Assembly: GCF_036507355.1 (NCBI RefSeq)
Contig: NZ_AP027884.1
Direction: 5' to 3' (one strand)
Source of the DNA: Escherichia coli
GTDB lineage: Bacteria; Pseudomonadota; Gammaproteobacteria; Enterobacterales; Enterobacteriaceae
Length of the DNA stretch: 4,112 nt
Position numbers and translations under genes: made by a program. Positions 1 to 4,112 of the stretch are shown piece by piece. Numbering within the stretch: the stretch's first letter is position 1; each line of letters begins with the position of its first letter. A model generated the notes under the pieces. It saw nothing but the letters and a program-made list of their open reading frames with translations. It did no database searches and was not told where the DNA came from.

Positions 1-104
1 TAATGAGAGCAGAGATAGCGCTGATGTCCGGCAGTGCTTTTGCCGTTACGCACCACGCCTTCAGTAGCGTAGCAGGAAGGACATCTGATGGAAATGGAAG
101 CCAC
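1..104 (-). CDS. insA: IS1 InsA, 5' portion (GTG start at 104; frame runs off the window start and resumes at 4112)
   Basis: Reverse-strand translation [34 protein letters not shown] matches the InsA N-terminus (MASVSISCPSCSATDGVV...) including the CxxC zinc-finger cysteines. Confidence 0.85.
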
Positions 105-136
105 GCAAGCACCTTAAAATCACCATTATACACTAA

Positions 137-159
137 ATCAGCAAGTTGGCAGCATTACC
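137..159. repeat. IS1 terminal inverted repeat (IRL)
   Basis: Reverse complement begins GGTAATGCTGCCAACTT, the canonical IS1 terminus. Confidence 0.85.
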
Positions 160-294
160 CGCGAGGTGACCAATCGGGTTCCTCATGGGAATAAAAACTG
201 CTGCAGTTGGCCCAGTGCCACGGAGAATCAGTTAGGCAATGGAAGGGTAATAAATAGAACTGACTGCCCTTATTCACTTGAGGTTTATCGGGAG

Positions 295-317
295 GCCCGC
301 TATTAGCGGGCTTTTCT
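295..317 (+). terminator. Putative rho-independent terminator (GCCCGC-tatta-GCGGGC followed by TTTTCT)
   Basis: 6-bp GC-rich perfect stem, 5-nt loop, T-rich tail on the plus strand; lies between the IS1 end and the 3' end of the convergent Wzz-like gene. Confidence 0.5.
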
Positions 318-369
318 GCATCTGGCGTGTAACGGATGTTGCTAGAATACGGTTATTAATCGTTACAGG

Positions 370-1038
370 CTAATAAAAAGACCTGTTTAACTTATTTTTA
401 TATTCAAGTATAGATCTTTTTATTATATGATACGAGGAGGAAAAGATAACGGCTATAATTAACGTTAGAGCCATAATTAAAGCTGGTTTATACTTTTTAT
501 TCACTATTTCATTATTTATTGAAATGAAGTTTTTTTCTCCGGTGGTGTTTATTTTTGTTAATAATGCAACTTTTGCATATGTTTCAGTGCCATTTATATA
601 GTTGCTGTCCTGGTTGTTAACTATGCTTTTATAAGTTTTATAATCTTGGATGTACCAGTCATCAATAGCTTTATGGATAGCGTTTACTTCAGCGGTAATC
701 AGTGGTTTGTAACGGTCATCACCAGCCCATGACAGGATTATTTTTTTTCCTTTTTCATCTATATTTGATGTTATAGACTTGCTTTTATTGTTTATAATTG
801 ATTGTATGATATTCGCTTTACAATAAAAGTCAGACCCACAGTTAATAATCATACTTGGTGAATTAGCGATCATATTTAATTCGTACTTTATATTTATTTT
901 GTTTTTGTTTATCAGTAAGAAAATAGATGACAAAATCAATGAGAAAACAACAAACAAAATAATACTCACGATTTTTTTCTTAAGAAAGAGAAATAACTCG
1001 ATGAAATCAATATCAGGTGAATTGTTTTCCATTTTCAT
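370..1038 (-). CDS. Short Wzz/Cld-like polysaccharide co-polymerase family protein (222 aa, bitopic membrane protein: N-terminal TM, about 140-aa periplasmic domain, C-terminal TM)
   Basis: A 669-nt ORF in roughly 25% GC DNA, where stop codons are frequent, is very unlikely by chance. The N-terminus MKMENNSPDIDFIELFLFLKKKIVSIILFVV parallels the Wzz motif M..ENN...IDLI(D/E)LL.QLW.GK..II followed by a TM helix. The C-terminus KPALIMALTLIIAVIF plus short basic tail parallels the Wzz C-terminal P-rich/TM segment. Hydrophobic stretches at about residues 23-43 and 186-206. Confidence 0.55.
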   Translation of the reverse strand: MKMENNSPDIDFIELFLFLKKKIVSIILFVVFSLILSSIFLLINKNKINIKYELNMIANSPSMIINCGSDFYCKANIIQSIINNKSKSITSNIDEKGKKIILSWAGDDRYKPLITAEVNAIHKAIDDWYIQDYKTYKSIVNNQDSNYINGTETYAKVALLTKINTTGEKNFISINNEIVNKKYKPALIMALTLIIAVIFSSSYHIIKRSILEYKNKLNRSFY

Positions 1039-1130
1039 ATACCAACAATAGTTATTAAATTATAGCTTAAATAAATAAATAAAATTAAAATAGCCGTGAT
1101 GAATATTTTCGCTGATTTAGTATATTTCAT
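1035..1130 (-). CDS. 31-aa hydrophobic micro-protein (MKYTKSAKIFITAILILFIYLSYNLITIVGI), predicted single TM; stop overlaps the Wzz-like start (ATGA)
   Basis: Hand translation of the minus strand: ATG at complement of 1128..1130; TGA stop shares 2 nt with the ATG of the 370..1038 ORF, the arrangement typical of translational coupling. Below the ORF-track size cutoff. Confidence 0.45.
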   Translation of the reverse strand: MKYTKSAKIFITAILILFIYLSYNLITIVGI

Positions 1131-1282
1131 TTTAAAATCCAATCAAATAAAAACATTTTACCTATTATTTAGGTGTGAGAAAACTCCTAAAATCAATTTT
1201 TTTTTGTTTGTTTTTTGTTCGGTTATGTCTATGGAGAGAGTTGTTATCAGCCTGTATCCTTTCCACATATTTTAAGATCTTC

Positions 1283-2697: not shown

Positions 2698-3066
2698 ATG
2701 GCGAATTTTAACCCTGGTCCAAGAACAGCCATTGCAGCTGTCAGGGATTCCAAGAACGATATAGAAACCTGGAAGAAAAATGGTATCCGTAGGGAAGAGA
2801 TTGTGACTGTACTGAATAAACGTTACGGCCTGAATATCTCACTGGTTGCGTTTGATAAGGCTCTTTACAGATTGAGAAAAAGTACAGATGAACCGTCTCT
2901 TGCTGATGTGGATTCTGTGTCTGCTGCAGAAACGAATTTCTCTGAAGCCAGTGGGCCTGAAAATGGTTTTTTTCTGTCCGGGAATGACTTCATGCGAGCA
3001 GAAGAAGAATCTCAAAGAATGGTTGAGTCATTCAGAGATAGCCTTGGCAGGAAGAAAGGATTCTGA
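2698..3066 (+). CDS. Hypothetical protein, 122 aa from ATG 2698 (ORF track extends to a TTG at 2656); basic N-terminal half, acidic C-terminal tail; possible DNA-binding protein
   Basis: Open frame of 120+ codons directly downstream of the phased repeats; N-terminal segment NGIRREEIVTVLNKRYGLNISLVAFDKALYRLRK is HTH-like by eye; no family recognised with confidence. Confidence 0.5.
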   Translation: MANFNPGPRTAIAAVRDSKNDIETWKKNGIRREEIVTVLNKRYGLNISLVAFDKALYRLRKSTDEPSLADVDSVSAAETNFSEASGPENGFFLSGNDFMRAEEESQRMVESFRDSLGRKKGF

Positions 3067-3503: not shown

Positions 3504-3526
3504 GGTGATGACTCCAACTTACTGAT
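3504..3526. repeat. IS1 terminal inverted repeat (IRR)
   Basis: GGTGATGACTCCAACTTACTGAT, the canonical IS1 terminus. Confidence 0.85.
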
Positions 3527-3914
3527 AGTGTTTTATGTTCAGATAATGCCCGATGACTTTGTCATGCAGCTCCACCGATTTTGAAAACGACAGTGACTTC
3601 CGTCCCAGCCTTGCCAGATGTTGCCTCAGATTCAGGTTATGCCGCTCAATGCGCTGCGTATATCGCTTGCTGATAACGTGCAGTTCTCCCTTCAGGCGTG
3701 ATTCATAAAGCGGCCAGCCATCCGTCATCCATACCACGACCTCAAAGTCCGACAGCAGGCTCAGAAGACGCTCCAGTGTGGCCAGAGTGCGTTCACCGAA
3801 TACGTGCGCCACAACCGTCCTCCGAATCCTGTCATACGCGTAAAACAACCAGCGCTGGCGTGATTTAGCGCCGACGTAACCCCGCTGTTCGTCCATTTCA
3901 GCGCAGACAATCAC
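3519..3914 (-). CDS. insB: IS1 InsB (shown from first in-frame ATG; in IS1 the transposase is the InsAB' fusion made by -1 frameshift at the A6C motif, here complement of about 3959..3967)
   Basis: ORF-track protein [28 protein letters not shown]...HYLNIKHYQ matches IS1 InsB; the TTAAAAAAC slippery motif is present on the minus strand just upstream. Confidence 0.9.
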
Positions 3915-3940
3915 ATCACCGCCCGGTTGTATGCGCTAGG

Positions 3941-4112
3941 TTACCGACTGCGGCCTGAGTTTTTTAAGTGACGTAAAACCGTGTTGAGGCCAACGCCCAT
4001 AATGCGTGCACTGGCGCGACATCCGACGCCATTCATGGCCATATCAATGATTTTCTGGTGCGTACCGGGCTGAGAGGCGGTGTAAGTGAACTGTAGTTGC
4101 CATGTTTTACGG
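3941..4112 (-). CDS. insA: IS1 InsA, 3' portion (stop codon = complement of 3941..3943)
   Basis: The frame continues from the window start; 34 codons + 1 junction codon + 57 codons gives 91 aa plus stop, the InsA length. C-terminal sequence ...[16 protein letters not shown] is followed by TAA. Confidence 0.85.

Follow-up and report, generated by a model that had tools for sequence, protein, structure and literature searches.

A predicted miniature polysaccharide co-polymerase of the YkgH family on a small ColE1-type plasmid of Escherichia coli

Polysaccharide co-polymerases (PCPs) such as Wzz are typically octameric, forming a bell in the inner membrane, and the mechanism by which Wzz sets polysaccharide chain length is still debated. 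The classical PCP motif is proline-rich before the second transmembrane segment (TM2) and glycine-rich within it (PX2PX4SPK...GGMXGAG). PCP-2b proteins are Gram-positive, and are encoded beside a separate BY-tyrosine kinase that they activate. Wzz of the type carried by plasmid pHS-2 sets a very long O-antigen mode (PMC12004945). Here we describe a gene for a much shorter Wzz-like protein, the mini-PCP, in a 4,112-nucleotide stretch of Escherichia coli DNA (contig NZ_AP027884.1, assembly GCF_036507355.1), the whole of which is called the window below. The window is a complete small ColE1-type plasmid, and the coordinates of the gene and of the other features are given in Table 1.

The open reading frame (ORF) is a real protein-coding gene under purifying selection, because the pairwise ratio of nonsynonymous to synonymous substitution (dN/dS) among eight alleles from different plasmids is 0.16-0.35. 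This holds also between the two main plasmid clades, where dS is about 0.7. By our own calculation, a random codon at 28% GC is a stop with a frequency of about 0.083, and a 222-codon open frame would then arise by chance with a probability of about 5e-9. A first-pass annotation, made from the sequence of the window, had reported a 222-aa ORF here. Its coordinates and translation are exact, the quoted protein being identical to ours; it did not state that the gene lies on the minus strand, and its start codon is probably not the one used. Since four of the eight alleles have ATA at Met1 and all eight keep Met3, the product is most likely 220 aa long, beginning with Met3 at window position 1032. 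RefSeq, which names the product 'GNVR domain-containing protein', starts it at a GTG at codon 24, giving 199 aa. That start was rejected: the GTG is not conserved, the codon being GCG or ATG in other alleles, and a product begun there would lack the Wzz-like N-terminus, which is conserved, and some of TM1. Start-codon annotation is inconsistent across the plasmid genes as a whole, with 199 aa in RefSeq for the main clade and 292-301 aa in the clade at 75% identity, where pipelines extend the gene upstream into its AT-rich leader (L029 4789-5694, L031 3306-4211, P0087).

The first-pass annotation took the product to be a miniature Wzz-like protein, and this is borne out by the match to Pfam GNVR (Table 1), by a family profile and by the predicted fold. 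The computational checks that it had suggested, ie searches with hidden Markov models, structure prediction and TM topology, were run. Taken alone, the mini-PCP matches the NCBIfam WzzB model (NF012015) with E = 0.0014 and Pfam Wzz (PF02706) with E = 0.024, the latter over model positions 2-39 of 91 only. The likeness of its N-terminus to WzzB, as claimed, is therefore weak for the single protein, but it becomes significant with a profile of 14 family sequences. Against solved structures this profile finds Salmonella WzzB (6rbg) at 6e-9 and FepE at 7.9e-5. The alignment covers both TM-proximal ends, namely the N-terminus with TM1, and TM2. The N-terminus of the profile aligns with residues 13-57 of WzzB 6rbg and residues 23-60 of FepE, and its i-Evalue against the WzzB N-terminus is 4.9e-5. 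Pfam Wzz is matched at E <= 0.001 by four of the 14 family members (best 4.6e-9) and GNVR by six of them. When the family was compared with three Wzz(FepE) sequences using hhalign, the N-terminal 44 columns alone were aligned, with a probability of 53%.

Hydropathy gives two TM segments, at residues 23-43 (approximately) and 187-206, separated by 143 residues, in good agreement with the periplasmic domain of about 140 residues that had been proposed. There is a KKK run before TM1 and a basic tail at the C-terminus; homology and charge suggest that both termini are cytoplasmic. An AlphaFold2 (AF2) model built on the 14-sequence family alignment is confident, with a mean predicted local distance difference (pLDDT) of 85.4 and a predicted TM-score (pTM) of 0.68, and its helices agree with the TM segments derived from hydropathy. 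The modelled base is alpha/beta: TM1 is followed by a strand, two short helices and two further strands. One 35-residue helix (108-142) then runs up from the base to a tip loop of low confidence (143-151), and a short return helix (152-162) leads into two strands that pass back to TM2. An alpha/beta base with a long periplasmic helical hairpin is the PCP protomer fold, and the plasmid protein is accordingly modelled as a PCP (Wzz) protomer with a much shorter hairpin. In the PDB, Foldseek ranks KpsE, Wzc, WzzE and WzzB highest, with E-values (4e-3 to 1e-1) that are modest. AFDB50 yields 395 matches at E <= 0.001. Nearly all of those listed are chain-length determinants or BY-kinases, and among them are further PCP-like proteins, about 200-230 aa long, of marine Gammaproteobacteria. 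A crude run of a linker-fused dimer, on a shallow alignment, gave a pTM of 0.38 and a pLDDT of 69.7, and the two copies were not confidently placed.

The two cysteines noted in the first-pass annotation are present (Table 1). In the 14-sequence alignment Cys73 is invariant and Cys67 is found in at least 90% of the members, and the pair is a candidate for a periplasmic disulfide. Asp11, in the N-terminal segment, is also invariant.

The gene had not been recognised as a described one, but besides its RefSeq name it has a full-length homologue in E. coli K-12, the named protein YkgH (b0310, 222 aa). BLASTP gives 27% identity over 213 aa, covering residues 9-215 of the plasmid protein, with E = 9e-32, and phmmer gives 5.4e-19 against the YkgH cluster representative (P0105). 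The TM-score of the mini-PCP against the model of an E. coli 'inner membrane protein' is 0.88. YkgH and the plasmid copy are alike in length and architecture (TM1, about 140 periplasmic residues, TM2), align from end to end, and share the Cys pair, the N-terminal (E/D)IDL, WY and KY(K/P) motifs and the predicted fold. Both have a GC content below that of their surroundings. The plasmid copy differs in being plasmid-borne and multicopy, in its GC content (28% as against 37%) and in belonging to a clade of its own, the members of which are 75-100% identical; the nearest chromosome-type relatives of this clade are only 37-44% identical to it. The plasmid protein is thus a diverged, low-GC, two-pass inner-membrane member of the YkgH family.

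That family is a small Enterobacterales group of orphan 'mini-PCPs' of 210-236 aa. Only 30 relatives came out of an exhaustive phmmer search through 1.84 billion representatives, the full-length ones all of 211-236 aa, and all of the sequence relatives are from Enterobacterales. The named members, all annotated as hypothetical or GNVR-domain proteins, are those of Salmonella enterica, Citrobacter, Providencia, Hafnia, Kosakonia and Morganella. A contig scan with K-12 YkgH found two tiny contaminant contigs and nothing else. Two entries labelled Streptococcus pneumoniae (P0002 and P0083), 94-100% identical to the plasmid protein and on a 19.6-kb contig, are most likely contaminated or mislabelled assemblies; in PLSDB, too, fragments of wzz(fepE) are filed under Bacillus anthracis and Corynebacterium. 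YkgH itself is an uncharacterised core-genome protein of E. coli, described in the literature as a 'predicted inner membrane protein'. Its gene appears among those with a Congo-red phenotype on deletion in a Keio screen, a single-nucleotide polymorphism (SNP) in it arose in an L-form line, and the UpaB island is inserted between betA and ykgH. Since it is already catalogued as YkgH and as 'GNVR domain-containing protein', the family is not new as sequence. In the literature we found no account of YkgH-type proteins as miniature PCPs or as cargo of ColE1 plasmids, and the gene is unmentioned in the literature found on GNVR and plasmids, or on small or cryptic ColE1 plasmids and Wzz or chain length, including two ColE1/plasmid surveys. 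Taking the identity as a whole, we are highly confident that this is a real gene whose product has a PCP fold and belongs to the YkgH family.

Compared with WzzB, WzzE and FepE (6rbg, 8bhw, 9ski), the modelled hairpin of the mini-PCP, a 35-residue helix and a short return helix, is much shorter than the classical bell, the helical dimensions of which are those of the solved Wzz structures. The mini-PCP also differs in having no glycine-rich TM2, and its gene in having no adjoining polysaccharide cluster.

The setting of the gene is an enterobacterial-type plasmid, as the first-pass annotation had it. Over its whole length the window matches E. coli plasmid p713Rt_4 (4096 bp) at 99.6% identity, and its identity to pCE35-5 (4112 bp) is 97.5%; it must be circular, because one copy of the insertion sequence (IS) IS1 spans its ends. 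A tblastn search of PLSDB found the gene in about 40 small plasmids (3-10 kb) of eight genera at 75-100% identity, together with a weaker match (E of about 1e-10) to the chromosomal E. coli ykgH, on F' plasmids and mislabelled chromosomes. It is present in 21-23 of 5426 complete E. coli genomes, and is always plasmid-borne; in all, several hundred assemblies have it. On several ColE1-type backbones across the eight genera it is the sole cargo besides IS and transposon (Tn) elements and replication or mobilisation functions. The additional genes of the larger carrier plasmids (6.4-9.6 kb) are IS/Tn elements, mobilisation genes and one for a DUF6530 protein, and give no functional hint.

The gene lies in a low-GC module (Table 1) that is common to different ColE1-type backbones. 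The region upstream of the gene within it is about 80% conserved between the two plasmid clades and stops at the ColE1 backbone boundary, and the gene is therefore transcribed divergently from RNAII. One sigma-70-like site was found upstream, at 1146->1119. The hairpin 3' of the gene has its T-run on the plus strand, and on the gene strand an A-run before the hairpin; in the 75% clade TTTT follows the hairpin on the gene strand. It was not called a terminator by the terminator scan, the matches of which were no commoner than in shuffled sequence. IS1 lies directly 3' of the gene here and in L023, L024 and L025, though not in the 75% clade, and may have helped to move the module.

Table 1. Features of the 4,112-bp window. 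Positions are those of the window; residues are numbered from Met1.
Feature	Position	Strand	Basis or remark
Mini-PCP (YkgH-family) coding sequence	370..1038	minus	222 codons from Met1; stop codon 370-372; ORF list
Cytoplasmic N-terminal Wzz-like segment, residues 4-22, NNSPDIDFIELFLFLKKK, with Asp11	973..1029	minus	NCBIfam WzzB match, residues 4-48
TM helix 1, residues ~23-43	910..972	minus	Kyte-Doolittle window means up to 2.9; helix 23-43 in AF2 model
Periplasmic domain, residues 44-186	481..909	minus	
Cys67 (838-840) and Cys73 (820-822), candidate periplasmic disulfide	820..840	minus	family alignment
Pfam GNVR (PF13807) match, residues 134-208	415..639	minus	i-Evalue 4.8e-9; model positions 1-81 of 82
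TM helix 2, residues 187-206, LIMALTLIIAVIFSSSYHII	421..480	minus	hydropathy; no Gly; single Pro (P186) before it
Basic cytoplasmic C-terminal tail, residues 207-222	373..420	minus	5 K/R, 1 D/E
Low-GC cargo module, ~1.0 kb	275..1276	minus	GC 0.28 against 0.49 in remaining plasmid; flank alignments show backbone divergence
AT-rich upstream region (GC ~22-28%), presumed promoter-bearing	1039..1276	minus	upstream alignment, composition
GC-rich hairpin GCCCGC-TATTA-GCGGGC, 3' of gene	295..317	unstranded	sequence, downstream alignment
RNAI gene	1324-1425	minus	Rfam, 101.6 bits
IS1, single copy across window ends	3504-4112 + 1-160		
InsB-type ORF	3519-3914	minus	IS1 transposase model, 2.6e-38

Sister plasmids of the window carry genes for surface glycans. 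Searching with the N-terminus of FepE brought up 59 plasmids, 3-4.5 kb in size and belonging to Shigella flexneri and E. coli, with full-length wzz(fepE) as the sole cargo. In two of these (L026, L027), and in an 8136-bp plasmid (L003) that has a GT2 glycosyltransferase gene and a gene for an 'LPS biosynthesis protein' in the same slot, backbone homology to the window starts exactly at position 1276, the edge of the low-GC module. The ColE1-type lineage thus looks specialised, in that surface-glycan genes are carried repeatedly in one slot. Wzz(pHS-2) and plasmid Wzz(FepE) resemble the mini-PCP in being the sole cargo of a 3-4 kb ColE1-type plasmid, with the same backbone boundary beside the RNAII promoter, and they have superfamily, topology and N-terminal motif in common with it. 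They are, however, PCP-1 proteins of about 370 aa, some 150 residues longer, with a full helical bell, and they retain the proline-rich and GGMxxxG TM2 motif which the mini-PCP does not. Pairwise BLASTP between Wzz of the pHS-2 type and the mini-PCP is not significant (E = 0.15), and wzz(fepE) on the plasmids runs opposite to the mini-PCP gene relative to the origin.

By analogy with these plasmids we tentatively propose, as the most probable role though at somewhat less than an even chance, that the mini-PCP alters the chain length of O-antigen or enterobacterial common antigen (ECA), most likely as a stand-alone co-polymerase of low profile. Like Wzz proteins, it would assemble within the inner membrane by way of its base domain and TM helices. 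There it would engage the resident Wzz complexes, a host polymerase of the Wzy type, or another enzyme acting on undecaprenyl-pyrophosphate-linked (Und-PP) glycan, in either the O-antigen (WzyB) or the ECA (WzyE) pathway. Expression from the multicopy ColE1 plasmid would then shift the chain-length distribution of a surface glycan, whether by low-profile co-polymerase action or by competition with resident WzzB, FepE or WzzE. The parallel would be the 3-kb plasmid pHS-2, which supplies Wzz(pHS-2) in Shigella flexneri, and that precedent, coupled with the shared cargo slot, strengthens the case for a role in chain length. Such a role, or co-oligomerisation with host Wzz or Wzy, had been suggested in the first-pass annotation and stays plausible. 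Indirectly, the chief ground for supposing that the mini-PCP has a part in assembling O-antigen or ECA is that the plasmid lineage repeatedly holds surface-glycan genes in one slot. The ECA polymerase WzyE is one candidate partner, because ECA, like the YkgH family, is confined to Enterobacterales. A bolder version, which we consider speculative and rather unlikely, is that the YkgH family as a whole is a natural 'minimal co-polymerase', in which the membrane ring and base of Wzz would suffice to programme a polymerase of the Wzy type, with the plasmid clade as a mobile, multicopy switch of chain length or surface glycan.

Several observations weigh against a role in chain length. The mini-PCP scores 17.6 bits against the WzzB equivalog model, the cut-off of which is 267. 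Likeness of the C-terminus to Wzz, another claim of the first-pass annotation, holds for the GNVR match and the basic tail but not for the classical motif. Before and in TM2 the sequence is KKYKPALIMALTLIIAVIFSSSY, with one proline and no glycine; the TM2 region reads KKYKP-ALIMALTLIIAVIFSSSY, compared to SPTLPVRKDGP...VIGGMLACG (SPTLPVRKDGPSNAIIVILSSVIGGMLACG) in Wzz(FepE) and LLGGMVGAG (LILAVLLGGMVGAGIVLGR) in WzzB. A distant family member, P0123, retains APK...LLGGMAGVG. None of about ten chromosomal contexts of distant relatives, inspected on contigs that were mostly short, lies within a cluster for O-antigen, ECA or capsule, and no partner recurs among them. It is the loss of the classical motif together with these orphan, non-polysaccharide contexts that weakens the proposal. 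In addition, the literature on ykgH gives no function, promoter-like sites upstream of the plasmid gene were no commoner than in shuffled sequence in the promoter scan, and its 28% GC makes silencing by H-NS possible.

The main rival reading, which fits the same contexts, is a different use for the PCP scaffold. YkgH-family proteins may keep it to serve another envelope process, with no control of O-antigen or ECA chain length, for example as a partner of a WaaL/PglL-type ligase, or of an adhesin/fimbrial glycosylation or secretion system, or in envelope homeostasis; we regard this as possible, though on balance doubtful. The chromosomal relatives are monocistronic orphans with a GC content below that of their neighbours, and lie outside polysaccharide loci. 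Their neighbours vary and are often adhesin-related, including an autotransporter (L006), PapB regulators and an HMW1C-type glycosyltransferase, and the UpaB island adjoins ykgH. On one metagenomic contig (L007, 5062-8663) a fimbrial operon, a gene for a 605-aa Wzy_C/PglL/RfaL-like protein and an ScsC/DsbA-like thioredoxin gene are followed on the same strand by the YkgH-family gene, and the oxidoreductase would suit a protein with a conserved Cys pair. (A reverse-transcriptase gene breaks into the fimbrial operon.) The loss of the TM2 motif, the Congo-red phenotype and the L-form SNP point in the same direction. However, the contexts differ from one another and are mostly variable islands, so that adjacency may be meaningless, and a Wzy_C-type neighbour occurs in L007 alone of the ten or so. 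The genes are 10-20 GC points under their chromosomal surroundings (30-38% as against 45-54%; L005, L006, L015, L019, L020), a member in L018 with 64% being the exception, and such low GC suggests horizontal acquisition and perhaps silencing by H-NS. Moreover, the gene travels alone on plasmids, and any partner must therefore be a conserved host protein, while the sister plasmids hold genuine O-antigen genes in the same slot.

A role in chain length could also be mainly negative. The mini-PCP would then mix with or displace host Wzz/Wzy complexes, shortening or removing modal O-antigen and changing susceptibility to phage, serum, bile or colicin, and the plasmid would be a surface-remodelling or exclusion element. 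The retention of Wzz-like N-terminal/TM1 and TM2 regions with the upper bell missing, the high gene dosage from a multicopy plasmid and the carriage of the gene as sole cargo on many backbones would all suit an antagonist. We nevertheless think it improbable. The existence of a chromosomal, core-genome paralogue, YkgH, speaks against a purely antagonistic role for the family. The phage exclusion envisaged in the first-pass annotation found no backing: PADLOC gave no families at E <= 1 and PHROGs none below E = 0.07, and no homologue was found in phage genomes (tblastn of INPHARED) or in the viral contigs of IMG/VR.

It is very improbable that the gene is a functionless hitchhiker or decaying remnant brought onto ColE1 plasmids by IS1. 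The adjoining IS1, the very low GC and the lack of a promoter detected above chance would be expected of one, but purifying selection disfavours it: the low dN/dS persists between clades with dS of about 0.7, the frame is intact in about 40 plasmids with several backbones in eight genera, and the 75% clade has no IS1. Least credible is the idea that the mini-PCP came from a Gram-positive donor of low GC content and is a PCP-2b-type transmembrane protein that activates a separate BY-tyrosine kinase. Its length of about 220 aa, 28% GC, two-TM Wzz/GNVR architecture and short extracytoplasmic domain do recall CapA, CpsC/Wzd and TkmA, but the comparison made in the first-pass annotation extends to size only and is largely refuted, since no specific sequence relationship is detectable and no Gram-positive MPA1 or PCP-2b NCBIfam model was matched, the family is wholly enterobacterial, with enterobacterial WzzB as the solved structure that it matches best in sequence, no BY-kinase gene adjoins any member in the carrier plasmids and chromosomal contexts examined, and 'Streptococcus pneumoniae' entries, at up to 100% identity to the E. 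coli plasmid protein, look contaminated or mislabelled.

Elsewhere in the window, at 2336-2414, there is a pair of palindromes (GTAATACG-n3/4-CGTATTAC), nearly identical and separated by 55 bp, upstream of an ORF at 2698-3066; they may be operator or centromere-like sites. The 122-aa product of that ORF is weakly similar to the N-terminal part of StbA, a plasmid stabilisation protein, with a match under the cut-off (1.7e-9). A hypothetical ORF of 49 aa at 2165-2314 on the plus strand, conserved in the plasmid family, shows a resemblance (E = 0.007) to the C-terminus of the MazE antitoxin and may be a remnant, the toxin gene being absent.

A miniaturised PCP that is under selection without most of the helical bell and without the classical TM2 motif would be a useful natural experiment. 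Should no glycan phenotype be found, the finding shrinks to an annotated hypothetical membrane protein. If the mini-PCP is a minimal co-polymerase, it would be a ready-made natural truncation for probing how far the periplasmic bell sets modal length, and the plasmid clade would be a dominant surface-glycan switch that is spreading between genera on ColE1 plasmids. Placing YkgH and the plasmid clade in the PCP superfamily provides a concrete, cheap hypothesis for an uncharacterised core protein of E. coli. Because the lineage repeatedly bears wzz(fepE), a GT2 gene with an LPS gene, or the mini-PCP, 'cryptic' ColE1 plasmids may be a neglected route by which O-antigens and cell surfaces vary in E. 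coli, Salmonella and related bacteria; such variation matters for serum resistance, phage host range and serotyping.

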